A DNA stretch of 64,000 bases from a virus. Taxonomy: Duplodnaviria; Caudoviricetes. Shown one piece after another: positions 37,328-63,507 of the stretch. The position numbers were made by a program, and so were the translations under genes. Each line of letters starts with the position of its first letter. Position 1 is the first letter of the stretch. The DNA lies in the IMG/VR virus record IMGVR_UViG_3300011616_000006, positions 32,001 through 96,000 of that record. One strand, 5' to 3'. A model generated the notes under the pieces. That model was not told the DNA's origin. It searched no databases and saw only the letters and a list, made by a program, of their open reading frames with translations.

Positions 37328-37385
37328 CTAAACCACCTCTTAAAATAGTTATTTTATCACACCTGTGGTTTGTGTAAAAATTGCA

Positions 37386-37535
37386 CTAACCACTATTTCT
37401 ACACTCCCATTTATTACAACTCCCTTCTGCATCCACAAAATCAGCACAATACTCACTGTCGCCGTTCACGCACACCCAAGCAAGACCATACTCATCAAAT
37501 TGAATCCACTTGCAGGTACTACAAGAATCAAACAT
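37386..37535 (-). CDS. Small Cys-rich protein MFDSCSTCKW (not in ORF track)
   Basis: Manual translation; GGAG SD. Confidence 0.65.
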   Translation of the reverse strand: MFDSCSTCKWIQFDEYGLAWVCVNGDSEYCADFVDAEGSCNKWECRNSG

Positions 37536-37557
37536 ATTATTAGTTCTCCATCAAAAA

Positions 37558-37734
37558 TTAATTTACCTGATTGCCACGCTCATACACAAACAATCTCAAT
37601 ATCTGTTTTGCCTCATTCTCTGTCAGTGAATCCACTGTATCAGAAATATAAGACATGTTGTCTGACTGCAATAATTCTTCCTTGATTTTACGCATCTTCA
37701 TGTTATTTTCTATCAATGCATCTATATCAACCAT
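37558..37734 (-). CDS. Small hypothetical protein MVDIDALIEN (not in ORF track)
   Basis: Manual translation; GAGGT SD. Confidence 0.6.
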   Translation of the reverse strand: MVDIDALIENNMKMRKIKEELLQSDNMSYISDTVDSLTENEAKQILRLFVYERGNQVN

Positions 37735-38093
37735 GCTCTTACCTCACTTTCTCCTACCCATATTGCTCCGGCAGCACCATCCAAGCAACCACCCCCCTGG
37801 CTGCAGCACCATTTCGGCTGCATAAACCCGTCTGCTAATTCATCGAACGCACAAACTACAATATCACCCAGATCTGTCTGCACCAGAAACTCACTGTCAT
37901 TAGCCAGGCGTTCTGCGGCATTTGGTAGCCGCTCGGCCACCGGTATCCACGTATGATAATTTCCGAGCGCTTCTATCGCATACTTTAATGCCGCATCCTC
38001 GTCTGGTGTTTCTATCTCAACATCGCCCTGATAGGTAACGCCCTCTAAGATATCTGTTAAAATATCAATCGCTTTTTCTTTTTCCATAGTCAC
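37722..38093 (-). pseudogene. DUF551-like protein with apparent frameshift in a G6 run
   Basis: WIPVAERLP in frame; the expected tail VVAWMVLPEQY lies in another frame. Confidence 0.6.
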
Positions 38094-38102
38094 TCCTTAA
38101 AA

Positions 38103-38468
38103 TCATTTGTACTTGTCGTACTTATCAATTAACCAATTCATATGCCCTTCTAATCGTTCAGGAAAAATAGTTCCGTTTGCTTTCAGCTTACTTATCTTCT
38201 CAATAGTAAGAACCATCTGTGTCTCTTGGACTGTGAGCATTTCTAAAAACAAATTTGATTCCTTATTTCCCATTTTTTCAAGCAACATATCATATGTTTG
38301 TTGATATGCATTAGCTAGAAGAATTGTCATATTCTCCAACCACTCAGTATAACTATCTAAAGACTCTGGTTGGTGAAGAGCGACAATTGCCGCCTTTAAT
38401 GCTGAACACCTGTAAGGGTCATGTGTCTCAGTATACATTTGCTTTAATTGCTGAATATGCTCTTGCAT
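38103..38468 (-). CDS. Hypothetical protein
   Basis: GGAGGGG SD before MQEHIQ. Confidence 0.7.
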   Translation of the reverse strand: MQEHIQQLKQMYTETHDPYRCSALKAAIVALHQPESLDSYTEWLENMTILLANAYQQTYDMLLEKMGNKESNLFLEMLTVQETQMVLTIEKISKLKANGTIFPERLEGHMNWLIDKYDKYK

Positions 38469-38469
38469 C

Positions 38470-38799
38470 TTACCCCTCCCAACTTTGAGTCGCCACTTCA
38501 TTAAATATTTCCAACATTTCTTCGTATCCGTGAATTGTCTCTTCAATATGATCAATAATCATTTCTTCAAACTGTTCTTTTGCTTCATCAAGATCACCTG
38601 CAAAAACGCAGCCATCCTCCACACTGAGCATATCTGACCTGTAATTAAACTGCTCCGGATCTTCACGGTCTTGAGCAAATGCTAGGATTACTTTATCATC
38701 ATAAAACTCGGTAAAATGCAATTCATAAAACGGAGTTCCAAACTTAATTGACTCATTCCGTTCCCAATGTCGGTTTGTATATTCAACCATTTTCACCAC
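38470..38799 (-). CDS. Hypothetical protein
   Basis: GGAGG SD; start probably 38790. Confidence 0.7.
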   Translation of the reverse strand: MVKMVEYTNRHWERNESIKFGTPFYELHFTEFYDDKVILAFAQDREDPEQFNYRSDMLSVEDGCVFAGDLDEAKEQFEEMIIDHIEETIHGYEEMLEIFNEVATQSWEG

Positions 38800-38836
38800 C
38801 TCCAGTCTTAGCTACTCATCTTTCGAAATAATCTTA

Positions 38837-39235: not shown

Positions 39236-40683
39236 CAGTCACAGTCCTCCTCTAAAGCGTTGATCTTTCTTAAATACTCTTCTGTACTCATATTTTCTTC
39301 CTCTGGAACATCAAAGTCGAAATAGTACATTCGATTTAGTACTTGTTTCATTTCAGAATTGTATCCCTTCATCAATTCTGCTATTTCAATTAATGAATAT
39401 TCCTTATCAAAGAAATTATTTGACAGCCATTCATATGCTATTTTTAGTCTGTTACCAGCCCACTTTTCCATCTGTCACCTTGCTCTATCTCATATTTAAT
39501 GTAATTTGAATACATGTAACAACCATAAATTTCACACACATATTCACATCTTTCATCATCCCAGCAGCAAAACCTACAGCCATGACATTTATCTCCTATT
39601 AACGCTCTTCCACTCTTATTTTTATAGGGCATTTGGTTCTTCCAGGCTTTTTATCTTAGAGAGTTTATCATTACTCTTTTTAATCTGCTCGAATATTTCA
39701 TTTTGTTCAGCAACATAACGGCGTGTCACATCAGCACTATTTTCCGTCAAATCATCAATACGTTTCTTCAGTTGCCTAGTAGCCTTCTTCAGCAGCCCCT
39801 GTGTGATGGGAACAAATAGGCATCTGTCCTCAGTATGATGTTTTTCCATCTCAATCTTATCAGTTTCCGTATATATACCGGCATCTGGGAGGAAACATGT
39901 ATAACCATTGCGTTCAGGCCCCCACCAAGTATCAATTTTGTAATGTTTTGACCAATATTCGCTTTTTATAAAATAAAGAATCATCTCCACTCCCTTCATC
40001 ACTAAAATTCTATAACCCATACCGGAAATGCACCGCGCTCATCTTTGCCGCAATATGTATAGCAACCACTACTGCTATCGCCGTCATAACCACACCAGTC
40101 TGGTACGCGAATATAATATCTGCACCAACGTTCATATACATCATCAATAGTGACCGACTCTTCAATTCCTACTTCGGCAATCGCCAATGTGATAACTTCT
40201 TCCTTAGTAAATTTCTTGGCATGTGCTACAAATTCCCCAGAAGAACCACCAGTAAACTCCATATAATCAAACTTGCTCATCGTTCTATTCCTCTCTGCTG
40301 CCTCACATAATTAGCCGTACTCATAATAGCTTCATTGCAAGAACGTCCAGTACAACTATGCAGCCGACTCCATTCACAGAAGGAACACCGACAACACTCG
40401 CCGACAGATTTCAAATATTCTATATCAATAGTCAACTGGTCTTTTTCACTCAAATCAGCCACCTCTCCTATCATGAAATCTACCTTTTAACGCAGCCCTG
40501 TCCTCCGTCTCTTAAAACCAGGCAGATGTCGCTGATTGCTCCATCTCCGCCCCGTGGTTGCCGAGCCACGCAATCAACAACCAACGCAACTACATTTCCA
40601 TTTGTATCTATGTATTTGCAGATAATATTGTCATCCCCCATACCTTTTAACGCTCCTACTAACTCCCTGTTTGTAAAAATCAA
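39235..40683 (-). CDS. Run of six small hypothetical genes (39235-39471, 39444-39632, 39622-~39984, 40002-40280, 40277-~40453, 40480-40683)
   Basis: Tightly coupled ORFs with SDs; no family recognised. Confidence 0.65.
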
Positions 40684-41142: not shown

Positions 41143-41702
41143 TTTACATTCTCCTTTATAAGTGTAATAATCTTTTCAACCACCTGATCAATATCACTGC
41201 CAACATTGTTATAGACAATCTTATCAGCCACTAATTCAAACCCCTTAAAATCTATTTTGTCAGCATCAAATCTACGTTTGGCTTCTTTTTGATCATCGCA
41301 TCTCATCTTCTGGCGTTTTATAACAGTCTTATCATTTGAAAATAGATAAATGACAAAGATATTATCATCGCAATTCCTTTTAAGATTACTTACACCCTCT
41401 GGTGTAAGAATCGTAATTGTATTATTGCTGGCGTTTTTAATATCATCTGCTGCTGAACCATAAAACCAATCTTCACTCTGACCATTGACTTCAGTGTGGT
41501 AAACTCTATGTTCTGCAAAGAACCCCTCATTGATCTTATCTTTAAATTCTTCTGCAGATATAAAATGGTATTCAATATCCTGCGTCTCTCCCGACCGCAT
41601 TGGTCGGGATGTATAGGTTACTAATTTCTGAAATCCACGCTTCACCAATTCTCTTTGTACTGTATCCTTGCCTGTACACGAGCGTCCCGACAGAACAATC
41701 AT
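41139..41702 (-). CDS. Guanylate kinase-like NMP kinase
   Basis: GRSCTGKD, TYTSRPMRSGE...YHF. Confidence 0.88.
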   Translation of the reverse strand: MIVLSGRSCTGKDTVQRELVKRGFQKLVTYTSRPMRSGETQDIEYHFISAEEFKDKINEGFFAEHRVYHTEVNGQSEDWFYGSAADDIKNASNNTITILTPEGVSNLKRNCDDNIFVIYLFSNDKTVIKRQKMRCDDQKEAKRRFDADKIDFKGFELVADKIVYNNVGSDIDQVVEKIITLIKENVK

Positions 41703-42595: not shown

Positions 42596-43907
42596 TTATT
42601 TATTTTCGAGATCTTTCAGATTTAATCTTTCAACCAATTCACTATACTTTTTCATTTCTTCCATATTCAAACTTTTTTCGCAAAAGTCATGAATTTCTTT
42701 TACCGACTTCCCTTCTTTGCACATGTCTAATACAAAACCCAAGATTCCAACTGCTCCTTGCGTAAAATGTGCGAACTTGCCATCTTCAATAGCTCTCTTT
42801 GCCGTACCAACAACGATATCATTCAATTGTTTCTGTCTTGTCTTTTTATTTTTTAAATATCCCAAATTCATTCCTCCTCTTTCTTAAAATCATTCTTTCA
42901 TTTGGTTTGATACTATATCAGCTGAGAGCAGTTCTTGCTTACAATATTCAAGAAACTCATCTGCCCACATTTTTTTCTTCAATGTATCGAAAATGTACAT
43001 CGTTTCGTACCCTTTTACTATGTGTTGAAAATCGGGATTCTTCTCGTCCAACCACTCACAACTGTCCCAATTCCAAAATGAGTCAATTACATAATCGAAC
43101 TCTGTCCGATATCTCCGTTTATAAATTTCCACTGCCTCATTCAATGAAGTTGCCAATATAAGGCGCTCATACCTTTTGTTATCTACAACGACACGACGCT
43201 GCCTTTTGCGGGAGCGTTCGTACCATTTTTCTTTTGGAGCATTCCCGATTGCATTAAAACTTTGCTCTACATAGACTAAATATATCTTCTTTTTCATAGT
43301 CATCCTCTCGAATATTTCAATTAGCCTAACCATATTGTACATTTCTAAACTGTTAACCCAAATGCACTAATACTCATGGAATCGACCTTGCCGTCAGTTG
43401 ATTTAGTCTCCTCCTCTGTTCCTCCATAATATAGGAGACCATGCATTGTGGCATAAAGGAATTCATCATCTTCAGCCATTAATGCATTACCTATAACAGC
43501 TCCAACCACTTCAGACTTTCCATTCTTATAAATTACAATAGGCTTTCCTGCGACATCCTTATAGGCTTCAATAACCGCTTGCTTTTCATATGTAATCCCA
43601 TTGTGGTCTGGTTTGCCAATAGGTATTGGTATTTTCATCGTAATTTCAATATTTTTGCTCCTCATAAATCTCCTTTGAATGATTTATTTTATACGCTCAC
43701 CACCGAATGTAAAGTTTGCTTTACATTTTATTTAAACTCCCAGTTTTTTAGTTCTTCGCAAAACCTGCGAAATGCCTGACTAGAACCAAGCTGCTCTCTT
43801 AGAGATTCAGTAACCCCAAAACCAGCACAAGTGAACTCAAACATTTGTCTATAAAACTCGTCTTCCTTATCTGAAACATCTTCAACCACTTTACTCGATG
43901 GCTCCAT
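42596..43907 (-). CDS. Four hypothetical genes (42596-42871, 42890-~43300, 43345-43665, 43728-43907)
   Basis: ORFs with SDs; the last was translated manually. Confidence 0.65.
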
Positions 43908-43943
43908 CTTATTAATGGCCCCTTTCTGATTGAAATTCGTCTT

Positions 43944-44633
43944 TCAAGCCCACTGATTCGCAATAGCCTTTGCGACTCCTATATATGTTTTGCTACGAAT
44001 CTTTGCCGTTTCTGGGGAGTTCCACGCCAGAACTTTCCCTTTATCATTTTTTGTATTAAACCCTTTGTATTTTCCATCTTTTATGTATTGATTTTTCCAC
44101 CCATCTTTCGGCTTTTCAACAACTTTTGTAGGTGTCAGCAGCGGTAGATTCTTCAACCACAAACATGTTGACTTTGTCTCTTCATGCCCAAACATCCACG
44201 GCTGAATTATTTGGTCTGGCTTACGATAAACTGTTGACATCACCCCTACGGGATTTTCAATCGCTATTCTCTCACAATCCGCATTGACGAATGAATTGAA
44301 GAATTCAATTGCCTCTTCTCTGTCTTTATGTCGCTGAATAGCTGCATCTCCATATCGATCAATATTGAACCAACGATTACCTGCGACTGTAAGATATGTA
44401 CAAGGTGGAAATGCAATAAGAATATCCCATTTTCCGTTTATTGTATGATTTTTACCATCAACTGTAGTGAACTGACAATTGCCATTCAGCAGAGGTAAAA
44501 CATTGGTTTGAATGTGCCACTCTGGGTAGCCACCAGAACATTGCTCCAAATCGCAAGAATATGCTTCATGCCCCAGACTTCTTAGCTCTTTTGTTACAGC
44601 TTGACTCTCTTCACATGCAACTAAAATCTTCAA
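43944..44633 (-). CDS. Short C5 DNA methyltransferase-like protein
   Basis: ILVACEES, AFPPCTYL, IENPVG, QPWMFGH, RSKTY.GVA.A.A.QW. Confidence 0.75.
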   Translation of the reverse strand: MKILVACEESQAVTKELRSLGHEAYSCDLEQCSGGYPEWHIQTNVLPLLNGNCQFTTVDGKNHTINGKWDILIAFPPCTYLTVAGNRWFNIDRYGDAAIQRHKDREEAIEFFNSFVNADCERIAIENPVGVMSTVYRKPDQIIQPWMFGHEETKSTCLWLKNLPLLTPTKVVEKPKDGWKNQYIKDGKYKGFNTKNDKGKVLAWNSPETAKIRSKTYIGVAKAIANQWA

Positions 44634-44727: not shown

Positions 44728-45952
44728 TCACTTCGTATATACTCTCTGCATCAATTCTTCCCGTCGCGAAATGGGTTTCCCGCATACTTGACAGATTCGT
44801 TTGCTTTTACGACATGTGCCGCACAAATCAGCCCCATTTACGTAATTAAATACTTCTATTCCGCAGTATTTACATTTGATTAGTTTTATACCCTTTGCAA
44901 TAGGACAACACACATGGACTGCTACAACTATCACCTCCGTCTTTTCAATCAAACAAAAGTCGCATTTTATTTAACCTTTACTTCCGCATTCCCAAATAAC
45001 AAGTTGCTCCACACGCAGGGCATTTAATGTGTTTTGAGCCATTACCTTTTGCTTTCAAATTTTGTTTTATGTCACAATTAGAATACTGCAAAAGCGATTT
45101 ACATTCCTGACATTCAATCTTGCGATTAATCATACTACCCAATTCTAATACTGTAACCATTATTCCCTCCAAATCAAATCTCTATTTCATATATGTCCAA
45201 CAATCTTGTGTCCGTTAAACTTAGTGTTACATCGAGGGCATTTCTTATAAATCGTAACGTTAAAACAATCTTCTTCTGGTAAAAAGCTTTTCAACTCAAG
45301 AATGAGCCCACAATATTCACACATTGAGCTTATTGCCGAGCAATCATCATTTTTGGGATATGTCCACACCAATTATCTGTACTACACTTTCTATAGTTGG
45401 TTGAGAATCAATTAGTTCTAAACTAACCCCAAATGGTTTATCCCAATTTGTAATATCTGCTTCTCTCTTTAATGCATCCGCGTCAATCAGTCTTCCCATT
45501 ACAAATCCCTTCTCATATTGTTTTTCAATTATCATAACCATCTTCTTTGAGTGTCATAACAATCTTCTCGATCTCATTCATCACCTCAAGAAGCTGTGAT
45601 TTATTCATACAACACAAACTGACCGTGTCCGGAATCGCCATGGTGTATGCTCCAACTTCTTTAGCAATCACATCAATCTTTTTATAGTGGTCGATCAATT
45701 CCCGGCAGCTGACATTTTCACTATAAGATAAAACGACAATATCATTTGGCTTTGGCTGTAAAATACTCAAATCAACATCATTCATCTTTGCTCCTTCTTT
45801 AACTCATCATATTGTACTTCCAATTCCTGAACCTTTTTACTATGTAGAGCTTTCACTTTTATTGCTACTTCATTACCACAGTATTCAGCTATTATTTTCA
45901 CCATATCATCGAAGGTTCGCACCGGCCACCACTGACCATTTATGTAGATAAT
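44728..45952 (-). CDS. Six small genes, several zinc-ribbon (44728-44952, 44978-45160, 45187-45372, 45347-~45500, 45525-45785, 45782-45952)
   Basis: CxxC pairs; RLIDADAL motif in one; starts uncertain. Confidence 0.6.
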
Positions 45953-45985
45953 ACATAATCACCCCCTTTGAAAGTGCTGTTTCAT

Positions 45986-47929
45986 TTACATCATTTCCAG
46001 TAATTGTGCTTCTGAAATAATTGGTACTCCTAACTCTTTTGCTTTTTTATTCTTGCCAGTAGTTGATGTAATGTCGTTGTTTACTAAATAAGATGTTTTG
46101 GCCGACACGGAACCACTCACTTTACCACCAAGAACCTCAATCTTCGATTTGGCTTCATCCCGATTTTCAAAGCTATCCAACTTACCCGTAATAACGAAAG
46201 TCATCCCATCCAACGTTGTTCCCTTTGCCATCTGCACATTTTCAAATTCGAATATATCCATCAAATTAGGAAGCCAGGTGTGATTGCGCTGGAGATAAGT
46301 CCACATTGAATTCTGCATTGACGTTCCAAAATCTGATAAAGTTGAGAAATCAAAACCGCTACACCATGAATCATAAAATTTCACTTCATTCTCAAAGGAA
46401 CTGGCAATCGCTTTGCTGGCGGATCGCCCAATAAGAGGAATTGATAACGAATAAATAAATCTGTCCAAAGTAGTGTTCTTACTCATCATTAAACTCTCCA
46501 GCAATTTTTCAACTGAACGTTTTCCAAATCGATCACTTCTACTCCATTCATCTTTATATTGATCAAGGTTGTATAAATCGATAAATGATTTCACCCATCC
46601 CCGGTCAACCAGAAATTCTATCGTGGCCTCACTCATTCCATCAATATTCAGAGCATTCTTAGAACAGAAATGAGTTAGTTTGCCAACTAATTTTCCTTTG
46701 CAGAATTCATTTGTGCAGTGTAACACTTCTGTATCTATATCTTTTTCCACTTTAGTTGCCTCACTGCACACTGGACATACGCCAGGGATGCGAACCGCAT
46801 TACTTCTGGTGTTATTTTCCTTCACCTGCGGTATGATCTGATTTGCCTTATAGACCGATATCTCATCTCCAATGCCTAATTCCAACTCTTTGAGAATGCT
46901 CACATTATGAAGGGATGCTCGGCTTACATCTGTTCCATCGATATTCACTGTGTCAAAAATTGCAACTGGTGTAAGAGATCCGGTCTTCCCCATTGACCAT
47001 TCAATGTCTCGCAACGTAGTTAGATGTTCTTCATCGTAAAATTTGAACGCCAATGAATGTCTTGGATGATGTCCTGTAGACCCAAGCGATTGACCATAAA
47101 TCATATCGTCATACGAAATAACCAAACCATCAATTGGATAACCTCTGTCTTTGGCCTCATCTTTCAGTGATTCAATCAGTCTTGTTATTTGCTGAACATC
47201 ATCGAATGGACATGAAATAAAGGGAACAACATCAAATCCCAATTTTTCTAAAGCATCGAGATTGGTACTCATCTGTCTTCCAAAATTCTTAGCCGGAACC
47301 TTCCAAGCAATACACCGAATCTTTCTTTCAGCAGCTACACGGTTATCAAGCTGCCTGACAGAACCGCTGACAAGATTTCTCGGATTCTTATATTTTTCTT
47401 CATCGGTTAAAGCCTCATTAATCACTGCAAAATCCTCATATGTAATGATTGCTTCTGCTTCAATCTCCAGCCGTTCATTATATCCGATCACAAGGGGTAT
47501 ATTAATAAATTCTCTGGCGTTGTGAGTAACCAGTTCTCCAACTTCTCCGTTTCCTCTAGTCTCAGCTTGAATTAATCTACCGCCATCATATGTCAAGAGA
47601 ATAGTTAACCCATCAAGTTTATGCATTAGCAAGCATGGTTCAGATGCTGCAAGCTTAAGCAAGTCATCAACCGACTTCGTTTTACTCAGGCTGAGAAGTG
47701 GGTGACTATGCTTCACTTTCTCCAATTTTGATACAACTTCATATCCTACAGTTTGAGTAGGGGAACCTGAAATAATAATCCCTGTCTCCCTCTCAAGTTC
47801 CTCTAACTGGTTAAATAGTATATCATACGTTTCGTCTGAAATAACTGAATTTGAGTTATTGTAATACTCATTGCGATAATAATTCAGTTTTCTTACTAGC
47901 CCCTTCATCTCGTTAATATCTTTTACCAT
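45986..47929 (-). CDS. ligA: NAD-dependent DNA ligase
   Basis: HPLLSL.K, KLDG, TRGNG, NPRN, zinc finger, BRCT. Confidence 0.96.
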   Translation of the reverse strand: MVKDINEMKGLVRKLNYYRNEYYNNSNSVISDETYDILFNQLEELERETGIIISGSPTQTVGYEVVSKLEKVKHSHPLLSLSKTKSVDDLLKLAASEPCLLMHKLDGLTILLTYDGGRLIQAETRGNGEVGELVTHNAREFINIPLVIGYNERLEIEAEAIITYEDFAVINEALTDEEKYKNPRNLVSGSVRQLDNRVAAERKIRCIAWKVPAKNFGRQMSTNLDALEKLGFDVVPFISCPFDDVQQITRLIESLKDEAKDRGYPIDGLVISYDDMIYGQSLGSTGHHPRHSLAFKFYDEEHLTTLRDIEWSMGKTGSLTPVAIFDTVNIDGTDVSRASLHNVSILKELELGIGDEISVYKANQIIPQVKENNTRSNAVRIPGVCPVCSEATKVEKDIDTEVLHCTNEFCKGKLVGKLTHFCSKNALNIDGMSEATIEFLVDRGWVKSFIDLYNLDQYKDEWSRSDRFGKRSVEKLLESLMMSKNTTLDRFIYSLSIPLIGRSASKAIASSFENEVKFYDSWCSGFDFSTLSDFGTSMQNSMWTYLQRNHTWLPNLMDIFEFENVQMAKGTTLDGMTFVITGKLDSFENRDEAKSKIEVLGGKVSGSVSAKTSYLVNNDITSTTGKNKKAKELGVPIISEAQLLEMM

Positions 47930-47930
47930 T

Positions 47931-48479
47931 CTACACACATCCCTTCATTAATTTGGACATCAATACGCCATGACATACCTCATATATCATCTGGCCCATA
48001 TTTTCTTTTTTCACAAAATTCATATGAAAATTTGAAATTCTTTGCACCCCCAGAATCCTTCTTAAAAAAGCCACTTCATTATACTCAGATTGATAATTGT
48101 GTGTGATAATATCATCAATCTGACAATCTTCAATAAAGAGATAACAGTTTTGTATATTAATCATTCTGTTCAATTCCTTAAAAAATCGTTCATCGTGGGC
48201 CTTGATATTTCCAGCTATTTCATCCAATCCGTTTTTTCGTTCTATGCACAATTCATCTGTAAAATATGTATCCACCAAAAAGCCCAGTTCTGGACATCTC
48301 TCTATCATGAAACAATAATCACCCGTTTTCAGTTTTCGTTTCTTACAACGAATACTTTTCTTATCAAAATACTCAAGTATATGCTGATTGGATTTTTCTG
48401 CGCTATCATGAATAATGACCATATGTTTAAGTAATTCCTTTAGTTGTTTTTCAGTATAATAATTCTTGATCTTCTTCAT
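47931..48479 (-). CDS. ERCC4-domain nuclease
   Basis: HDSAE...LKTGDY...IERK. Confidence 0.88.
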   Translation of the reverse strand: MKKIKNYYTEKQLKELLKHMVIIHDSAEKSNQHILEYFDKKSIRCKKRKLKTGDYCFMIERCPELGFLVDTYFTDELCIERKNGLDEIAGNIKAHDERFFKELNRMINIQNCYLFIEDCQIDDIITHNYQSEYNEVAFLRRILGVQRISNFHMNFVKKENMGQMIYEVCHGVLMSKLMKGCV

Positions 48480-53361: not shown

Positions 53362-53369
53362 TAATCGTT

Positions 53370-53413
53370 AGAGTAAAGATATCTTTTCGCTGCGCAGCAA
53401 ACCCCCTTACTCC
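53370..53413 (-). promoter_or_regulatory. Leader hairpin with palindromic apex, copy B
   Basis: GGAGTAAGGG...GCTGCGCAGC...TCTTTACTCT. Confidence 0.65.
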
Positions 53414-53417
53414 TCTC

Positions 53418-54422: not shown

Positions 54423-54444
54423 ATCTCACTTTCACCTCCTCTAA

Positions 54445-55998
54445 CTATTTTATTTCGCCATGTTTGATTCTACATTGGGCGGTCTCACGAAAAATCGCAT
54501 AATCGCCTGAAAATTTACTGAGGTAACAAATCCCGTTATCACTAGAATTTGCTCCACTTCTACATTTTTCTGTAAATATAACACGCCACACAGCAGTTGG
54601 ATCGGGCTTATATTCCTCTTCTATCCATTTGTCATTGACCTTTTTTAGTCTAAAAGGATGACAATAATACTTACTCTTAGGATCTAGTTCTTCATCAAAA
54701 ACATTTCGCATAAAAAACAGATTTTCTAAAACTTCTTTTATCTGTTTTGAATTAGTTAAGACAGATGAATCCAAGAACAATTTTCCTTTCATACTTTCCA
54801 GCAGCTGAACAGATCCAAGCATTATTATGTTGTATTTCTTTGCTAATCTGTCTAATTCTCTACTATCTCGCACAAGAGCCAAATCCTGTCTTTGTCCTTT
54901 AAAATCGTTTTCAGACAATTTAAATGTGTCTACAAGCACAGTGTCATATGCATAACGTAACACATTTTCACGAATCTTCTTTTTGTATATTGATATATTG
55001 GATGTGTTTACTTCAATAAATTTCAATCTGCCTTTATAATTATCTCTCCAATATTCTTGGGCGATCTTTATGTACTCTCTGTCCTCGTCCGTGATGTTTC
55101 CGCTCATCAACTTTTTCTTCGTCAGCTTGAAATATCTACAGTATTTACCCAATATCCAAACAAGAAACTTCAATTTGAACTTTTTCGAATTTTCCTCGTT
55201 GGAAATAATAAGTATTTTTTTATCTTGATATAGCAATGCCATGATAATCGTTACCCACCAGGTACTTTTTCCTGTGCTACTAAAGCCTCCCATCATGGTA
55301 AAGGTTCCTGGTAAAAGCCCATTAATTTGCTTTGATAGAAATGGAAAGCAGTTTATCTCATCCAGATTTATATCATCACCAGCTGTACCAAAATCAACTC
55401 CATTTTCTTCTCCGCTTGAACACGATTCAATGAATGAATCCGGGAAATCGATTTCTTCTTCTTCCAACACACTACTTGACTGACCACAATCGTAACTCTC
55501 TATTCTTGCAGAATACCAATCACACACTTCTTCCGCAGTCATTTTTCGCAACAGTTTAAGCGGAATCACAAATTTCTCATTGAGGCTTATCTTCCCCAAC
55601 AGATTAAAACCATCTCTGTGCATACTAAGCAGTATGTTTTCGCGATATAGGATATCTAAATATATATCAAAGTTTTTTGCATTTATTATTTCAATTTGAT
55701 GTTGAATTGTTTCCCACCCACCGCAAGCGTTATATCTTTCGATAACCTCTTCATTCATATTGCTAAGAATTGTAACTTCATCCAGGGAATAGAACCCCTT
55801 CTTCCTTAACTGCTTCAGCAGCGAAAAATAGAAGTAACCATCTTGCGTAATGAAATTTTCAGATTCTAGCGTTGTTTCATCTAATAAAAGCATATCATTG
55901 AAAAAACAGCTAACAACATTTCCTTCTATTTCAAGACGGCCTTTTAACAATTGTTCAGGATATTTATCTTTAACGCCTGTCAGGAAATCCTTTTCCAA
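54445..55998 (-). CDS. DnaB-like replicative helicase
   Basis: GGFSSTGKS, ISNE, LVDT, VQL, KCR.G. Confidence 0.88.
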   Translation of the reverse strand: MEKDFLTGVKDKYPEQLLKGRLEIEGNVVSCFFNDMLLLDETTLESENFITQDGYFYFSLLKQLRKKGFYSLDEVTILSNMNEEVIERYNACGGWETIQHQIEIINAKNFDIYLDILYRENILLSMHRDGFNLLGKISLNEKFVIPLKLLRKMTAEEVCDWYSARIESYDCGQSSSVLEEEEIDFPDSFIESCSSGEENGVDFGTAGDDINLDEINCFPFLSKQINGLLPGTFTMMGGFSSTGKSTWWVTIIMALLYQDKKILIISNEENSKKFKLKFLVWILGKYCRYFKLTKKKLMSGNITDEDREYIKIAQEYWRDNYKGRLKFIEVNTSNISIYKKKIRENVLRYAYDTVLVDTFKLSENDFKGQRQDLALVRDSRELDRLAKKYNIIMLGSVQLLESMKGKLFLDSSVLTNSKQIKEVLENLFFMRNVFDEELDPKSKYYCHPFRLKKVNDKWIEEEYKPDPTAVWRVIFTEKCRSGANSSDNGICYLSKFSGDYAIFRETAQCRIKHGEIK

Positions 55999-56004
55999 TA
56001 TGTT

Positions 56005-56505
56005 TTATCCCTCCAATTCTATTTCAGCCAAACTCCTTCGGCATTTTTGTGGCTTATATTTCATTTCAATCACATCAACTGAAACTTGTTTTTTTATATT
56101 CAGAATTTCTTTTCGAGTAAAATCAGCCAAAGAATTCTTGAGTATTGCTGTGAAGTAACGAATTTGAGCAAATTCACTCTTGAAGTCCTTTCCGACGATA
56201 GAGGACAATTGATTCTCGTTCTCTTTTAAATAGGCGAATATTTGTGAGTATGTATATATATTTGCCAGATCTTGTATTTCCTTAAATAAAATGGTATTTG
56301 TAATTCTTCGGCCAAATATTTCATAAATCAGAATGAATGTATTATCCTTTTCATCCTTTCTCTTGTTCCATTCATCGCATTCCTCTTTGCTACAGTAATA
56401 GACATTCTTTTCTTTTATGATCTTTTTATAGGCCAAGCTTCTCTCGATCTTATTGCCACAAATCTTACATTTTACGAGTATAATTTCACCCCCCTTTAAA
56501 ATCAA
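56005..56505 (-). CDS. Zinc-binding replication protein (possible ATA start at 56481)
   Basis: CKICG...YYCSKEEC; immediately upstream of the helicase. Confidence 0.7.
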   Translation of the reverse strand: MILKGGEIILVKCKICGNKIERSLAYKKIIKEKNVYYCSKEECDEWNKRKDEKDNTFILIYEIFGRRITNTILFKEIQDLANIYTYSQIFAYLKENENQLSSIVGKDFKSEFAQIRYFTAILKNSLADFTRKEILNIKKQVSVDVIEMKYKPQKCRRSLAEIELEG

Positions 56506-56543
56506 AGCAGGGAATCGAACCCTACTTCGACAATTTTTAAGTA

Positions 56544-57692
56544 TTAATTATTTAGTTTGTCATACAATTTTTTCAGTTCATCATCTGGAACATCTGTAAA
56601 TTTACCAAATGTCTTAACTGTTTCTCTCACTTCTGTCTTGAGATCATCAACCTTACAATTTTTGAACAGATCCCTTGTTGCCCCAATCAGATCATCAGGA
56701 TAATTATCATCATCAAAAGGAAGTTCATTCACTGTGTCTTCATTCGTGGTATCATCCTGCAACTCGTCTTTATCAATGTCGTCTTTTCCTGAATCTTCAG
56801 TAACTTCCCTTTGTGTAGTCTTGCTGTTGACAAATTTGGAAACGCTAGATGCTTCAATAGCATCTTCTAGTGCCTTAATAAAAGCATCTGAATTCATTGG
56901 AACACTGTCAACAATTCCACTAAATCTCGACTTACTATCAACAGAATAATTATCATCTCTAAATACAATTTTTCTGTATTCCTCTTTCACTTTGTTAACT
57001 GTTATTTCTTTTTTGGTAGCAATATTTTTTCTACCGGTTCCCTCCACCTCAATGGTTCTGTCAATACAGCCCATTCCAACAACATGCATCTTTGATTTAA
57101 ATCCATTGAAGTATTTTTGCATCATATTTGTTGTTAGCGTTGTATATGTTGAATTTGAGATTGGATCAATGATATCACGAACTTTGACATGACCTGTATA
57201 CCAAACCCGAACACCAACCTGTTTCAATGCCCACACCTTATTTAAAATAATTTCAACAACTTTATCTTCACCTCGCCCAAATCCACCACAAGCAGCATTT
57301 AATGTTTTAGCGGGAACAAAATCCTTTTTTCCAAGATTCTCTGAGTTCCATGCACGAACAACTTCTGGCTCAGTGATTTCAATGATCTGATCCAGAGTAT
57401 CAAAAATAACCACCTTTAAGTCTGGATAATCTGTCTTCTTATTTTTCACGATATCAGACACTACAGCATCGAATTTCTTCCAATTTTCAATATCCTCATA
57501 AGACGCATAAGGTAAGCAGTCAACTCCCTGTTCTTTACCAGCATTAAATATCATGTAGCCATCTGACCCAAAAAGTTTTTCGCAGGTCTCATACATGGTT
57601 GTTGTTTTACCAATTCCACTTTCTCCCAATAAGCATACCGAATAATTTTCTAATCCTTTTTTAACAACATTCTTTTTTCCAAACTTAGCCAT
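56544..57692 (-). CDS. AAA_24/Sak4-like P-loop ATPase
   Basis: GESGIGKT, VIFDTLD, GH, KSR. Confidence 0.82.
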   Translation of the reverse strand: MAKFGKKNVVKKGLENYSVCLLGESGIGKTTTMYETCEKLFGSDGYMIFNAGKEQGVDCLPYASYEDIENWKKFDAVVSDIVKNKKTDYPDLKVVIFDTLDQIIEITEPEVVRAWNSENLGKKDFVPAKTLNAACGGFGRGEDKVVEIILNKVWALKQVGVRVWYTGHVKVRDIIDPISNSTYTTLTTNMMQKYFNGFKSKMHVVGMGCIDRTIEVEGTGRKNIATKKEITVNKVKEEYRKIVFRDDNYSVDSKSRFSGIVDSVPMNSDAFIKALEDAIEASSVSKFVNSKTTQREVTEDSGKDDIDKDELQDDTTNEDTVNELPFDDDNYPDDLIGATRDLFKNCKVDDLKTEVRETVKTFGKFTDVPDDELKKLYDKLNN

Positions 57693-57753
57693 TACAATCT
57701 CCTTTAATTAATGTTTTGGAAGGGGCGAAAACAATCGCCCCATATTATATTGA

Positions 57754-58959
57754 TTACAGGTCGTCGTCATCATCCTCAAAGAGACCCGGAACATCTTCAG
57801 GAAGATCTTCGTTGAGAGGTTTGATTATCATATCATCAACTGAATAGACTGTTTCCTGTTTTCCTTTAGTGAATCCGCGCGCCGGTTTAACAAATTGTAA
57901 TTCCTGAATCCTATCCCCATATACACTCCCGCCAAGTTCTGCTCTAATGTCATCCAAGGTGATAAGTCCGCAGTCAATGTCCTCTCTCTGGTCATCTGTC
58001 AACATATCGTTAGTAATTTCAACCTTCTGTGCGCCATTAATCATACTTACGACAACTCCATATTCATAAACCTTATCGTCATCAATTGTAAACTTACGCA
58101 AGATTGCTTTGACGCGCTTTGCTTCCTTTTCATCTTCAGATCCTAAAATTGCAATAGTGATGGGAACCGGAATATTGACCTTGCGATTTGATTCATATTC
58201 CATATGAAATCCATTTACATAATATTTTCCTGTTTCCTCAAAAGACAGATCATCAAGTGAGTTAGAATCAAACAAAACGTTTACTGTCGCAGTAGAATAT
58301 TCTTCTGCATCTTCTGCTGCTAAATAAATGCGATTGGGAATATAATTTTCGTATACTCTTTGCTTATCATCTGAATATGAATAGTCTGCATTGCCTCGAA
58401 TAAGAAACTTATTATTATCGTATTTACCGCTGTCAATAACCTTTTTGATAAAATCAACAAAGTCCCATTCTGAAATATATTCATGTCTTCTCTTTTTGCT
58501 TTTTTCTAACTCTTCAGCAACATCTGCTTCTGATGTCACTTCAATTTCTTTTAGTTCTTCATCTGTAAGGCTGGTTCCCTCTTTAACCTTTTCGGCAGCT
58601 TTCTCAAGTTTGTATCGTCTTCCTGGCTTCTCAAGATCGAATACAAACTTCTTAAATTCTGCGATTTCAGGAATATATTTTGAAGTAAGTCTTTCTTTAA
58701 ATGGTATTTGAATTGGTTCGCCTTTCACTTTCTTACCAGATGCATCAGTTGATCCCTTCGTAAAAGAATAAACATCCCCATGTCCATCAGCAAAGGCCCC
58801 AGCTTTTACTTGTAATAAATGTCTGCTATCACCACAGGTTGCAGTAAACCTAATTGTTTTGTTCATCCAACCAGATGACTCATAATTTTTTTCTTCATAT
58901 GGATGAAATTTCTCACTATCTTTGCCCAAACTCAACTTTCCAATCATTTCAAAATTCAT
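57754..58959 (-). CDS. Probable ssDNA-binding protein
   Basis: First gene of the replication operon; acidic tail FEDDDDDL. Confidence 0.55.
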   Translation of the reverse strand: MNFEMIGKLSLGKDSEKFHPYEEKNYESSGWMNKTIRFTATCGDSRHLLQVKAGAFADGHGDVYSFTKGSTDASGKKVKGEPIQIPFKERLTSKYIPEIAEFKKFVFDLEKPGRRYKLEKAAEKVKEGTSLTDEELKEIEVTSEADVAEELEKSKKRRHEYISEWDFVDFIKKVIDSGKYDNNKFLIRGNADYSYSDDKQRVYENYIPNRIYLAAEDAEEYSTATVNVLFDSNSLDDLSFEETGKYYVNGFHMEYESNRKVNIPVPITIAILGSEDEKEAKRVKAILRKFTIDDDKVYEYGVVVSMINGAQKVEITNDMLTDDQREDIDCGLITLDDIRAELGGSVYGDRIQELQFVKPARGFTKGKQETVYSVDDMIIKPLNEDLPEDVPGLFEDDDDDL

Positions 58960-59099
58960 ATATATTCAATTACCTCCGTATAATTATTTGTATATAAACT
59001 TTGCTACTGGGACGAATCTTTGAAATATGAATTTCGTCTTATTTAATTTTTTTATTTCTATAGCCAAATGGTTGAACTATTAATATCGTGCACATATTT

Positions 59100-59153
59100 T
59101 GGACACTAAGGGAGTCGAACCCTTCCACCATAAGAACCCACATTCTAGCGCCC
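59100..59153 (-). ncRNA. tRNA-like mini-structure (acceptor stem plus T arm, no anticodon arm)
   Basis: GGGCGCT/AGTGTCC-A; AAGGG-TTCGACT-CCCTT. Confidence 0.6.
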
Positions 59154-59272
59154 GTCACACTTGCGATATCATAGTTTAAGCTTAAAAAAAATATAAAAAT
59201 CAAACCATCTATATAAAGTCACAGCAGCAAAGGATATTTTAGTTCATTGAAAACCTTCTTTTATTCGTTTGG

Positions 59273-60261
59273 CTATCCCAGTGGATTTATCCCGAAGCAA
59301 CCAATTGCCTCAACAACTACAGGATTATCACTGACTAATGTAATCTCACTCTCTTCAATAATCCCGTACACCTCACTGTGTTTTCCCTCACACTCTCCCA
59401 AAAATAACTCTTGACCAATCAGGCCCCTAACTTCTTCATCAGTGGCTGTAAACAAACCACCGATAAAGGCATAGTCAGAATCCCATTCAAATTTCCATAG
59501 TTTTTTCACTTAAAATCACCTCACTTTCTCCAAAAAAAGGTGCAAAAAATATAGAGCTGCTTAAATCAGCACTATATCGTCTCCGATATTTAGTTTTTCC
59601 ACCATATTTGATTCGTCACAAATAACTTTGTTCATATCCATATGCGTAATGACCAACGATCAATTTGCATTTCTCACATTGAATATCGGCTTCGCACAAA
59701 ATAGATCCAATACCGTCTAAATAGTCTTTATTCGTATAGACAAGAGCCTTACAGCCACACTTACACATTATTGGTTCATGATACTTATTTTCATAACCTA
59801 GTGCACGCATCTTCAGATGGTGAATCTCCTCGCTTAAAATGAACATTAGCAACTCAATACGTCGTTTAATCTGGGCATCCCTTTTTTTCTTATTTTGTCT
59901 CAATATATACCTTTTCTTCGCTTACTATTTTCCAGAACACATAATTTGATTTTGGGATTCCGCATACACGCCCAGACTTAAAATCATCAACTGTGTAACT
60001 ACAATATACTGGGCGACACTTTATATCATCAAACCATATAGGAACAAAATCCACCCCATCTGCGCCATATTCAAGCATCATATCAAAAATAGTCTTCATT
60101 AATACCTCATCTCTATCAATAAAATATTGGTTTCTTTTATCTCATGAGTAATCATCACACGAGTCATTATAATCAACATAATCTCCATGACGTTGACAGT
60201 AACCATCTTCGCAACTCATTGTGAGATAATAAGCACAATCTTCACATCTATCATAATCCAT
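59273..60261 (-). CDS. Four small hypothetical genes (59273-59509, 59616-59903, 59890-60099, ~60142-60261)
   Basis: ORFs with SDs. Confidence 0.6.
59544..59577 (-). terminator. Intrinsic terminator
   Basis: ATATAGTGCTG...CAGCTCTATAT-TTTTT. Confidence 0.6.
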
Positions 60262-60292
60262 TTAAATTCCCTTTCTTTAATACAAATTTTAA

Positions 60293-60925
60293 TCAGTCTT
60301 CGTCATTCGTCTCCATCAGTTCATCACAATTGCCACATTTAATTTTTGCATCGCGCCCGGCCTTAGCAGTCTGATCACATCCTGAACAGATATATTTGAA
60401 CGACTTCTTTTCTCTCGGTTTTTTTACTTTCACTGGTACAACAGATCCAAGCCGGAAATATTTAAATGCTTTTGGATCAGGTTTCATTTCTTCAACGATA
60501 AAAGTTTTCAATGATTCCGACAGTGATGTATAGCCCCATCCATATTGTTTTGACTTTTCACAGATCAGACCAACTCGTTCCGCTGCAGTCTTAAACTTCT
60601 TATTATGTACTTGACCGTTACAGTCTTTGATCTCATTTTGTCTATTAACGTAGTGAACCATTTCATGATGAAGGGTCTCAATAATTTCTTCTGCCGGACG
60701 ATTCATATTTACCGGATTAATATTAATCTCGTACCTAGCGGATTCTTCATTCTCAGTTTCGTTTTGATTCTTCCATACTTTTCCCAGCGTAAAATGTCCC
60801 AGATTATTTGGTCTTGATTTCTGAATTGATATAACCGGTTCTGGTAATTTTCCTTCATAATACTTTGCGTTTAAGATATCAAAACATCTATGTAGCTCAT
60901 CGAGAGCTGCGCCTATAATATTCAA
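60293..60925 (-). CDS. SprT-like zinc metalloprotease
   Basis: TLHHEMVH...HNKKF; C-terminal CxxC pairs. Confidence 0.88.
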   Translation of the reverse strand: MNIIGAALDELHRCFDILNAKYYEGKLPEPVISIQKSRPNNLGHFTLGKVWKNQNETENEESARYEININPVNMNRPAEEIIETLHHEMVHYVNRQNEIKDCNGQVHNKKFKTAAERVGLICEKSKQYGWGYTSLSESLKTFIVEEMKPDPKAFKYFRLGSVVPVKVKKPREKKSFKYICSGCDQTAKAGRDAKIKCGNCDELMETNDED

Positions 60926-60955
60926 TAATAACTCCTCTCATATAATGCAGGTCAA

Positions 60956-61199
60956 TCAGTCACCCGTTACCCAAATATATGCCGCCATTATACATCCCAG
61001 CCAGGCAATTAATCCTCCAACACAAGAAGCAAATACACATTTAACAAATGTAATTCCCACCACCGAGGCTGTCAATGTTCCTGTATCAAATGCGCGACAA
61101 GCTGCTAAAATCGGCTGTACAAACAATACCCAACCACCAAGGTAAAGACCACTAAAGATTCCCATCGCGCCTATCAAAAAAAGCTATTATATTTCGCAT
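60956..61199 (-). pseudogene. Two-TM membrane protein, frameshifted in a T7 run
   Basis: GGAGG-ATG at 61199 is one base out of frame with the hydrophobic body. Confidence 0.55.
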
Positions 61200-61259
61200 C
61201 TAAAATCCTCCACTTTGTTTCTGTCTATCAATCTTTGAATATTTGTTGAATGTGTCGTT

Positions 61260-62941
61260 TCATTCGTTAATCTGCTCGAACTCTGCACAGTACATTGCCC
61301 TATCGAGCTGATTGAAGGTCAAGCAATCAGAGACGCCGGTTCTTCTGTTAACACAGTATATCCCTGTTGCATACGTGCGCCATCTGCTCGTACCAGCAGC
61401 CGTTAACTCTGTTGAAAAATCATAAATATCTCCAACCTTTAAATCGCGAAACAATTGACATTTTGATTTCCTGTATATCTCAGTGCATTTTGCGGTACAT
61501 TTTAAATCCATAACCCCTCCTAACTATAGTTTGCTTCTGGTTCGGCCTCGGGTGTAATCCCCTCCTCTGCCGAATTATCATCAATCTGCAACTTGCAAAA
61601 TGATCTCTTTAAGCTACAAAGAAATACTTCGAATGAGTTCATATATCTTAGTGAAGAAATATCCGGATTGCATCGATAATCTATATCCCATTTTTCTCCA
61701 TCATATTTTTGCCATCTTGTGATCGGAATTGAGAAATTCATATCCTCATCATGTTCACACTCAAAAACTATATTGGCCTTCTCAAAATCAGACCAGGAAC
61801 AACCAGCTTCATATTCCACTTCCATTGTACATTCCACTGATTCATACGTTGGCTCATCATCAGTATTGACTTCCAGCCCATTCGTCTCAACATTGGCAGC
61901 TACATAATTACACCATTGCTCAAACAACTCTGAGGTCTTAATGACCTTTCGCCCATCTTCAATCATAAGTTCCTTAAAATTCTCAAGGATTTTCTTATTT
62001 TCAACCAAAGATGTAGAATTAACAATTTCTGTTAATACCGTATCTAACTTAACTATGTATTCCGAGAAATCAGTTTTTTCAATAGCTGGAGCCATTACAG
62101 ATTCCACCTTTTCTCTAATTGCTTTTCCTACTATCCCGTAACTTCGGAATATTTCTGCCATAGCCTCATTGATACCTTTTTCAAACTTTTCAGACATGAT
62201 TTTTTCTATCGAACCGTCTGAGAGCTTCTCTTCAATAATTCCCTTAATGTTTTCTTCTAAAGTCATATATCCTCCTATTTGACATGTAATAATCAATCAC
62301 AATTTAACAACTTCCACCGTCATATGGAATAAAGTTCTCTTCGCAGTCCTCCGGCAAGCACACGCCACAGTCCCAACAATTATAATCATCATCATAAATT
62401 CCATGGCAACAACTACTGCAATCATTCACGGGTTCACTTTTATTAAAATCGCTCATCACTCTAAATCACCTTCCTGAAATAAAGATTTCAACTGTTCAAC
62501 CAACTGTTTTCTAAATAGTAAAAGCCATACACAATAGCTCCTGTGAGAACTAGCCAGAGGAGCCAAAAAACAACCACCGCTAAGATAACCATTAATATAA
62601 ATGCTGGACTAATCTATAGCACCTCCTGCTTAGATCAAATTGAAGATTGCCCACCTCAGTGTTTCTGCCGCATAGCTATCCTGCTCTACCTCAGCTCTAG
62701 TCAATAAATCCTTTAATTTGGTAAGCTTTGGTTCTTTGTTTTCCTTCAAGTATTGTAACTCTTCTTTATTTAAATGTTTCGCTGCCGACGCACGACTTTC
62801 GATCTGCCGTTCGACAATCCTAAATTCATCTTTATTAAGCCATTTAATCCATTTCCCACACTTTGAACAGTAAAGCCCTTTGTTATTACCAGACGTTTTA
62901 ATAAAGACATCGCTTGAAAGACATTTATTACATGAAAACAT
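61260..62941 (-). CDS. Five hypothetical genes (61260-61511, 61520-62266, ~62305-62457, 62488-62613 single TM, 62630-62941 zinc ribbon)
   Basis: ORFs with SDs; two translated manually. Confidence 0.65.
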
Positions 62942-62980
62942 TATTACACTTCCTTTCCCTTTAAAAGAGTGGATTCAAGC

Positions 62981-63451
62981 CTATAAGCATTTCCCTAATA
63001 TCTGAGGAAAATTATATGAGCTTGGTAACTGTCCGATCAGATTAACCTCAACTTCTGTTACTCCGTTTTTTGTTTTTACCATAACAAAATCCCCCTTTTT
63101 AATAAGCTCTGGTTTCATTGATTTTGGAAGCTTCCACCCGGATTTTTTACCACTATTTAAATAGGTTCCAATCACGTAAGTAGAAAGAGACTTATTATTT
63201 CCTCTAAATAAACGTTGCCAAGCGGATGGTTCGTCAAATTTCACTTTAACACGCTTTACCCCGGCTTCCTTCAAAACTAAATATAATATGTATCCATCAA
63301 TCAGTTCATGTTGCTTGTTTATAACGATGTACCGATCTTGAATCTTCTTATGGATATAATTATCCCTACAGAGTTTTAGTTTCACTGGACTGGGTGATGA
63401 CCTGGCAAAGTCATCTGTAATAGTTATATCTGTTAATTTTATAGTCTTCAT
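62981..63451 (-). CDS. ParB/Srx-like N-terminal domain protein
   Basis: IVIN...ELIDGY..YL. Confidence 0.55.
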   Translation of the reverse strand: MKTIKLTDITITDDFARSSPSPVKLKLCRDNYIHKKIQDRYIVINKQHELIDGYILYLVLKEAGVKRVKVKFDEPSAWQRLFRGNNKSLSTYVIGTYLNSGKKSGWKLPKSMKPELIKKGDFVMVKTKNGVTEVEVNLIGQLPSSYNFPQILGKCL

Positions 63452-63507
63452 GCTTCCCCCCCCTATGAAAGAGCAGTTTCACTGTATACTTCGGAACTGG
63501 TTAAGGC

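Follow-up and report, generated by a model that had tools for sequence, protein, structure and literature searches.

The DNA analysed here is a 64,000-nucleotide stretch of a viral record (IMG/VR IMGVR_UViG_3300011616_000006, positions 32,001 to 96,000), referred to as the window throughout, and it carries part of a prophage in which a 16-bp palindrome, TRAAA-N6-TTTYA, recurs in the short gaps between genes. The excess of this motif over chance is real, and comparison across genomes indicates that it is common to the wider lineage of SPbeta-like large phages. There is, in our estimate, an even chance that the motif is a cis-acting site in double-stranded DNA for a two-fold symmetric (dimeric) core protein of SPbeta-like large siphophages, a reading in which we infer protein binding, an effect on transcription and the identity of the reader. 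The motif is apparently undescribed so far. The GenBank record of SPbeta has annotations for stem-loops and for two further palindromes but for none of the motif copies, and neither an SPbeta review nor a comparative preprint mentions the motif, which leaves room for an earlier mention in other literature.

A first-pass annotation of the window had listed eight exact copies in the prophage and six others, each one mismatch from the pattern, and a pattern search recovers all of them (Table 1); a ninth exact copy, at 20427, lies outside the prophage. The window is the reverse strand of contig C22:11324-75323, and the remainder of the phage occupies C22 1-11323 and contig C38. Expected counts were calculated analytically under a first-order Markov model in 2-kb blocks. 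Against this composition-matched background, a comparison that the annotation had named beforehand as a check, window positions 30900-64000 hold 8 exact copies where 1.03 are expected (Poisson P 1e-5). Likewise, C22 1-44400 holds 13 (1.35 expected) and C38 46700-62043 holds 9 (0.47 expected), giving 22 against 1.8 for the whole rightward early array. The late and structural part of the prophage has 4 exact copies against 1.2 expected; the remainder of the host genome has 95, where 74.5 are expected. When the spacer is varied from 0 to 15 in the early array, N6 gives the 22 copies and each other spacing 0-5, while the same scan of the 6.4-Mb host genome shows no N6 peak. As a class, one-mismatch copies are in mild excess (27 vs 17.9 +/- 4.2).

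On the coding strand, the usual layout is a stop codon, the motif, 0-15 nt, a GGAGG-type Shine-Dalgarno (SD) sequence and a start codon. In the prophage, where the copies read on the minus strand, 11-23 nt separate the end of the motif from the start codon that follows, a distance of 11-32 nt across four phages, and the motif often abuts or contains the upstream stop. The placement at gene boundaries described in the first-pass annotation thus stands, and extends to 5 of the 6 one-mismatch copies, as do its remarks that the N6 spacers of the window copies all differ and that junctions of the replisome block lack the motif. That block (window 45986-58959) has no exact copy, and its one-mismatch copies fall only within genes, though 3-4 of its junctions are roomy enough. 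If the motif is a site in duplex DNA, the position beside the SD would be largely a matter of space, since the gaps measure 30-45 nt and are filled by motif and SD. The consensus ends at the 16 bp, with no extension past the motif.

The same word is found in related phages at the same spacing. The early array of the IMG/VR phage G301 has 14 copies at N6, phage G302 has 25, and the early array of phiCD211 has 23 where 5.8 are expected, each with an N6-specific peak. Exact copies outnumber a reversed-pattern control in Clostridium botulinum phage c-st (37 vs 11), Geobacillus E3 (42 vs 10), gut phage MT835469 (50 vs 13), Bacillus anthracis phage Thrax2 (22 vs 7) and, weakly, Lactococcus WRP3 (12 vs 6). 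SPbeta itself carries 36 exact TAAAA-N6-TTTTA, 29 of them within the early arm, and 0-6 at any other spacing; its 50 same-strand junctions of 25-150 nt hold 13 exact and 9 one-mismatch copies, against 0.1 and 2.2 in shuffles. The late operon of SPbeta, transcribed by a different RNA polymerase, has copies as well, at a few of its junctions. Counts in four Firmicute phages unrelated to these do not rise above background (SPO1, 1; SPP1, 0; phage K, 5, with 5 also in the control; phiCD27, 3). The hosts of carriers include Bacillus, Geobacillus, Clostridium, Clostridioides and Lachnospiraceae-like bacteria, and carriers also include uncultured gut phages. Among 13 orthologous pairs of copies, the arms show 0 substitutions in 130 positions and the N6 5 in 78, which makes N6 the most variable stretch. 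The motif offers a simple signature for SPbeta-like prophages and their gene-module borders in metagenomes, and SPbeta, a genetically tractable model with 36 copies, makes its function directly testable in B. subtilis.

Duplex DNA or RNA element

The arms of the motif vary independently of each other. Among the 22 early-array copies, position 2 is G in 15 and position 15 is C in 14, and the combinations of the two (GC 9, GT 6, AC 5, AT 2) match the expectation for independence, so that A.C mismatch combinations are as frequent as wobble G.U. The R/Y degeneracy of the arms is mirror-symmetric. Predicted RNA hairpins have minimum free energies of 0 to -3.8 kcal/mol, 2 of 8 are unfolded, and their z-scores against shuffles are not significant. 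No U-run rule was found at these hairpins, which thus lack the terminator stem-loop character of PeSL elements. Independent arms and marginal hairpins appear to suit recognition of duplex DNA by a protein with two-fold symmetry better than they suit an RNA stem-loop. The motif has a pair of identical half-sites, set at a constant distance of one helical turn and under no need to pair, as would be expected for a symmetric dimer on duplex DNA.

Some copies do not stand behind a gene: they are placed after a terminator and ahead of a sigma-A promoter, or share bases with a -10 element. The copies at C22 1454 and 3584 are 7-8 nt upstream of good -35 boxes, with 1454 directly after a terminator, and SPbeta copies at 76171 and 99498 follow terminators and precede promoters. 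For the TTTACA-N16 promoters at C22 31633 and 37968, it is the motif copy that provides the -10 hexamer, TAAAAT. These four C22 copies are the few that touch a promoter-like match, so that a promoter for each unit, as in PeSLs, is not found. A fixed distance between motif and sigma-A promoter was sought, and yielded only a weak cluster where TAAAAT doubles as the -10.

A possible, though rather unlikely, alternative is an intercistronic RNA element, URAAA-N6-UUUYA. Lying just 5' of the SD on polycistronic early mRNA, it would be the target of a binding factor or of an RNase, and would so govern how the next cistron is translated or how stable it is. Such an element would account for a coding-strand context that is always stop, motif, SD and start, for the narrow range of distances to the start codon in four phages, and for the presence of copies in an operon served by another RNA polymerase. 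Yet the arms do not covary, the hairpins are marginal or absent, single-stranded RNA leaves the mirror-symmetric R/Y degeneracy unexplained, some copies stand between terminator and promoter, and host genes do not use the motif. A search with Rfam 15 at gathering score over window 30000-64000 returned tRNA-Pro alone and no family match for the motif. The first-pass annotation had proposed binding sites for a phage regulator or an RNA-processing factor; spacing, symmetric degeneracy and conservation across the SPbeta supergroup speak for the regulator, while the lack of arm covariation and the marginal hairpins speak against the RNA half of that proposal.

Candidate reader proteins

If the motif is a site for a symmetric protein on duplex DNA, a putative dimer would occupy copies in the short gaps between small same-strand early and accessory genes, and the bound protein could modulate or block the passage or initiation of host RNA polymerase gene by gene, in the manner of stoperators or of the TF1 sites of SPO1. 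The identical arms at dozens of junctions would double as short homologies for gene gain, loss and swap. The reader is very probably not the immunity repressor, and the motif is the same across distant phages; a conserved core protein of the lineage is therefore the expected kind of reader.

The case against the repressor comes from weighing the copies as strict stoperators, that is, as extra operators through which the immunity repressor would silence the early array in the lysogen. This we regard as highly improbable. The likeness is that this temperate phage, like the Cluster A mycobacteriophages (PMC6550527), has many copies in its short gaps between genes, that two copies overlap sigma-A -10 elements, and that Cro/CI-type helix-turn-helix (HTH) genes are present in the prophage. 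However, the switch region between two such genes (C38 38.4-49.3 kb) has no copy even at one mismatch, so that no motif operator stands at an early lytic promoter by a repressor gene, and it has different repeats of its own. Immunity operators also diverge with their repressors (PMC6550527), whereas one and the same motif is shared by phages whose hosts are Bacillus, Geobacillus, Clostridium and Lachnospiraceae-like bacteria, and the SPbeta master repressor binds SPBRE.

Two repeat families mark the switch region. Near-identical promoter-plus-box repeats of the TTGAAAAGTTCATAAAAGTGTATTAGAAT type lie at 6267-6294 and 7107-7134, and also at 4834-4862, of the C38 40001-60000 stretch. They include a 28-nt inverted pair, 96% identical, recall the SPbeta layout of SPBRE within promoters and may be the true operators of the prophage. 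The second family (…TTGACAATACACATTTCAAAGCAAT…) has 4-5 copies on both strands upstream of a Cro/CI-type gene, at 3005-3032, 3166-3193, 3873-3895 and 4242-4268 of the same stretch.

The YonN-like HU protein is a tentative candidate for the reader, unlikely on balance. It is the only recognisable conserved dimeric DNA-binding candidate, and is encoded near a YonO-type polymerase. The gene, at C38 32758-33048 (Pfam E 1e-28, 41% identity to YonN), has counterparts in SPbeta, phiCD211, c-st, E3, G302 and MT835469. A tblastn search across four phages for a conserved small DNA-binding protein gave none besides an Xer-like recombinase. On the same strand as the HU gene, as for yonN/yonO in SPbeta, C38 34538-37204 encodes an 888-aa protein, which has no Pfam match; its G301 homologue lies beside or within the G301 stretch that matches the SPbeta YonO RNA polymerase. 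A more specific proposal, which we consider distinctly unlikely, is that TAAAA-N6-TTTTA is a supergroup-wide control word, wherein a YonN-type HU made with YonO would silence or insulate host-polymerase transcription over ~20-50 early-arm junctions while YonO takes the late operon. If true, this would be a switch mechanism new for this phage group, including the toxin-converting c-st and the large C. difficile phages.

Several observations weigh against a site in duplex DNA for a dedicated dimeric protein, or against HU in that role. A copy is present at only about 20-45% of roomy junctions, and placement beside the SD on the coding strand suits a role at the RNA level as well. The A+T-rich relatives all have TAAAA/TTTTA, so the covariation test draws on the 22 copies of this prophage only. 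G301, which has 14 exact copies and 25 composite sites, retains the motif with no detectable HU-like gene, and the presence of HU is lineage-linked and hence not independent evidence. Finally, SPO1, which encodes the site-preferring HU homologue TF1, has no motif enrichment (1 copy).

It is also conceivable that no protein reads the motif, which would instead act through DNA structure (A-tract/T-tract bends) or be purely evolutionary linker homology kept for gene shuffling. The arms are indeed A- and T-tracts bounded by flexible TpR/YpA steps, and gene-exchange borders cluster at copies. This is quite improbable, however, as a strict N6 and invariant arms over very distant phages of 26-37% G+C point to sequence-specific selection, and selection for evolvability alone rarely fixes a 10-base word. 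Among the CcpA cre, Rex, CodY, ComK, parS, LexA and CRP/FNR boxes, we know of none with the motif word at N6 spacing.

Gene-exchange borders at motif junctions

The first-pass annotation had named recombination sites of an integron-like cassette array as the first of its two readings, and had proposed to ask whether breakpoints of gene gain and loss fall within N6. Since no close relative of the prophage was found, breakpoints were compared among four motif-bearing phiCD211-type genomes (L030, which is phiCD211, L040, L050 and L051). The borders of homology gather between genes, where 95 of 184 alignment ends lie, and 19% of these intergenic ends fall in motif bases, which make up ~5% of intergenic DNA. 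Where they fall is not uniform. At 5 junctions the border lies 1-10 nt 5' of the left arm, so that motif and N6 stay with the downstream gene; at 3 it lies past the motif or past the SD; and at 4-6 it lies at the edge between arm and N6, where alignment through a conserved arm is expected anyway. Borders before, inside and after the motif thus replace the breakpoints within N6 that had been anticipated.

Individual events are also informative. In L050, one deletion fuses two copies exactly at their left arms, which by alignment looks like recombination between copies. A gene of L050 that is absent from L030 and L040 has left two intact copies 8 nt apart, and tandem intact copies after gene loss are not the product expected of site-specific exchange. 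The phiCD211 methyltransferase gene is flanked by a 24-bp direct repeat that consists of the right arm and the SD.

At phiCD211 19650-19700, tandem intact copies 8 nt apart occur where the related phage ES-S-0107-01 has an extra small gene.

The integron-like array finds no support. Sites of the attC type (imperfect palindromes of 57-141 bp with a GTTRRRY core) are absent, the motif measuring 16 bp with 5-bp arms; none of the three tyrosine recombinases is an IntI-type integrase with an adjacent attI and Pc heading the array; and no single fixed crossover point in the site is seen in the four phiCD211-type genomes. A search for further tyrosine recombinases, as the annotation had advised, did yield two besides the prophage integrase: an Xer-like enzyme within the early array, with homologues in G301, G302 and phiCD211, and a degenerate 317-aa protein (Table 1). 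The Xer-like protein may be a multimer-resolution enzyme of plasmid-like prophages. The degenerate one neighbours a MazF/PemK-like toxin gene (C22 1888-2274), and the pair recalls the SPbeta integrase-fold repressors (YopR/SroF, YopP/SroD) and the MazF link there.

These enzymes bear on the possibility, very improbable in our view, that copies are core sites of a tyrosine recombinase in a cassette system, the Xer-like enzyme or its catalytically altered relative binding the arms and exchanging strands in N6. In its geometry, 5-6-5 with a spacer that is not read, the motif matches recombinase core sites; the intact Xer-like enzyme is conserved in three other phages; mosaic borders show ~3-fold enrichment in motif bases over the rest of the intergenic DNA; and SPbeta offers an example of recombinase folds put to use as DNA-binding regulators (PMC10516654). 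Against it stand the spread of the borders, with N6 mostly staying with the downstream gene; the gene loss that left two intact copies in tandem and not one hybrid; the short 5-bp arms; and the lack of attC-like length, attI or Pc. In addition, every N6 is different, and classic strand exchange between copies would thereby be blocked, and the ChAP-seq peaks of SPbeta MrpR are at SPBRE, not at the motif. The picture suggested by the alignments is that junction words act as short homologies, as PeSLs do, and not as an integron, and gene shuffling at copies fits best as a by-product of a regulator site. The likeness to T4 PeSLs drawn in the first-pass annotation is apt for this evolutionary side effect, in which copies serve as gene-shuffling joints. 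The motif marks the exchange points of accessory genes in large C. difficile phages.

Prophage setting and comparison with known systems

The host genome is 6.55 Mb, 45% G+C and Firmicute-like. The prophage starts with a tyrosine integrase beside tRNA-Pro and extends beyond the end of the window; its genes within the window are all on the minus strand, and C38 (62 kb, 37% G+C) carries the structural genes and the beginning of the rightward array. The genes below ~30.9 kb are those of an ordinary cell (HAD hydrolase, pyridine-nucleotide disulphide oxidoreductase, M24 peptidase, TrmA-like methyltransferase, MFS, ABC-F). Judged by its DnaE/YorL-type polymerase, replisome synteny, YonN-like HU, YonO-like large protein, ArdA and NrdD, the prophage is a member of the SPbeta supergroup. 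Identity of the polymerase is 33-38% with the phiCD211, c-st and Geobacillus E3 enzymes and 75% with that of G301, which has only the replisome block and the structural genes in common with the prophage. Close relatives were not found: megablast of phage records gave 0 matches, 300 genomes of the host's family gave no useful close relative, IMG/VR gave sole relatives at 75% and 33% DnaE identity, JGI metagenomes and GTDB representatives gave none nearer, and the best identity in a large protein collection was 80%, from a 3.6-kb contig. A sequencing-run search listed no RNA run and returned small DNA shares only, in insect-gut runs.

Table 1. Motif copies and other features of the prophage. Positions are those of the window unless C22 or C38 is named; ORF, open reading frame.
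Feature	Position	Strand	Context
Exact motif TAAAATAACTATTTTA	37341..37356 (C22 37968)	-	Then SD and ATG of ORF 37025-37327; left arm is the -10 of a sigma-A-like promoter, TTTACA-N16-TAAAAT
Exact motif TAAAAGGTAGATTTCA	40474..40489	-	N6 contains TAG stop of ORF 40480-40683; next gene begins at or just past motif
One-mismatch copy TGAAAAGATTATTACA	41163..41178	-	Then SD and ATG of ORF 40684-41142; absent from the first-pass list
Exact motif TGAAAGAATGATTTTA	42885..42900	-	N6 contains TGA stop of ORF 42890-43342; then agaaagaggagga-ATG of ORF 42596-42871
One-mismatch copy TAAAATAAATCATTCA	43676..43691 (C22 31633)	-	Then aaggag and ATG of ORF 43345-43665; left arm overlapped by promoter-like match TTTACA-N16-TAAAAT
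Exact motif TGAAAGACGAATTTCA	43931..43946	-	Own TGA is stop of ORF 43944-44633; ORF 43728-43907 next
One-mismatch copy TAAAATGCGACTTTTG	44954..44969	-	8 nt past stop of ORF 44978-45172; SD gacggaggtg downstream
One-mismatch copy TGAAATAGAGATTTGA	45174..45189	-	Then tttggaggg and ATG
Exact motif TGAAACAGCACTTTCA	45969..45984	-	1 nt past stop of 650-aa ORF 45986-47938; then aagggggtgatt-ATG
One-mismatch copy CGAAATTCATATTTCA	59021..59036	-	In ~310-nt non-coding region upstream of replisome block; no SD after; one-mismatch copy at the orthologous place in G301
Exact motif TAAAAGAAGGTTTTCA	59248..59263	-	9 nt past stop of ORF 59273-59509; 5' edge of the ~310-nt non-coding region
One-mismatch copy AGAAACCAATATTTTA	60120..60135	-	Then SD and ATG of ORF 59890-60099
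Exact motif TGAAATCTTTATTTCA	62475..62490	-	Then ggaaggtg and GTG of ORF 62304-62459
One-mismatch copy TGAATCCACTCTTTTA	62962..62977	-	Then SD and ATG of ORF 62630-62941
Exact motif TGAAACTGCTCTTTCA	63466..63481	-	Then tagggggggg and ATG of ORF 62981-63451
tRNA-Pro	30804-30877	+	Adjoins integrase
Tyrosine integrase (PF00589)	30940..32199	-	Prophage end; marks edge of the element bearing the motif array
Replisome block: DnaE/YorL-type polymerase (48451-51756), helicase, DHH exonuclease	45986..58959	-	Syntenic with SPbeta yorF-yorL and with G301
Degenerate tyrosine-recombinase-like protein, 317 aa	C22 2633-3586		RSLRKT in place of HxLR; partial Pfam match only
Cro/CI-type gene	C38 44446-44739	-	Flanks switch region, which has its own repeats and no motif
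Cro/CI-type gene	C38 46730-46936	+	Flanks the same region
Xer-like tyrosine recombinase	C38 59774-60811		Within early array; R, HxxR, H and Y all present

The non-coding region ahead of the replisome block (58960-59272, ~310 nt) holds, besides its two motif copies, an A+T-rich box, TTTATATACAAATAATTATAC, which resembles the SPBRE-type box upstream of SPbeta yorE/yorF. Three distant phages share a promoter-like box, ACACACAAT(A/T)TTATC…, with a motif copy 15-20 nt downstream of it (window 47900-48100, which is C22 27217-27262; L033 15735-15780; G301 104235/113637). Upstream of a 166-aa gene of the replisome block, window 56506-56543 (C22 ~18781-18818) contains a hairpin that resembles a tRNA T-arm, AGGGTTCGATTCCCT. 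It is kept in G301 (~81490-81535) as GGGTTCAATCCCC, the two phages being otherwise dissimilar there, and ARAGORN predicts no tRNA in this gap. Outside the prophage, window 20175-23856 is a low-G+C island (35-37%) with a nucleotidyltransferase, an ABC-F protein and an MFS transporter, a gene set typical of antibiotic-resistance islands.

Dispersed junction sites are a kind of element already known, as stoperators, Cluster O dyad repeats, start-associated sequences and PeSLs, and dispersed junction palindromes are a recurring feature of phage genomes. The 17-bp dyad repeats of Cluster O mycobacteriophages and the start-associated sequences of Cluster K are likewise short repeats dispersed by gene starts and junctions. 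They belong to other sequences and lineages than the motif, and the start-associated sequences are asymmetric and include the SD. TF1 of SPO1 is a phage HU-family dimer with preferred sites in early promoters, and has been proposed to act on early transcription; its sites are ~37 bp and hydroxymethyluracil-dependent. The likeness to TF1 is that most motif-bearing phages have a YonN-like HU gene, and the difference is the single motif copy in SPO1.

Stoperators (Cluster A, L5 gp71 and Bxb1; PMC6550527) also comprise 20-30+ copies of one short site in the intergenic gaps of a temperate phage, and are likewise proposed to be a protein roadblock to transcription. They are asymmetric 13-mers, oriented with transcription, identical to the Pleft operator and diverging with the repressor (PMC6550527), whereas the present motif is a palindrome whose degeneracy is mirror-symmetric, has no copy in the switch region and does not change between phages that are very distant. 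The PeSL of T4-type phages (Arbiol et al. 2010, PMC2839356) is similarly a repeated element between small non-essential genes, at which indels and replacements between related phages end. It combines a strong sigma-70 promoter with a terminator stem-loop and forms mini-circles (PMC2839356), while the motif has no consistent promoter or stable hairpin.

The nearest relation in place is SPBRE, bound by MrpR/YopR/SroF (PMC10516654; bioRxiv 10.1101/2025.11.27.690993), which is also repeated, intergenic and in the early arm of the same supergroup. SPBRE (…ACAAAAAATATGTATA…) is longer, at 15-24 bp, is read by a monomer and stands at about 10 promoters (PMC10516654; bioRxiv 10.1101/2025.11.27.690993). 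Identity of the motif with SPBRE is rejected, as the SPBRE copies upstream of aimR, yonT, yonX, yopV, yopM, yorE and yonP are a different, longer word, and at SPbeta aimR and yorE the two stand side by side. Amid these systems, the motif stands out as one word kept over a very wide phage lineage.

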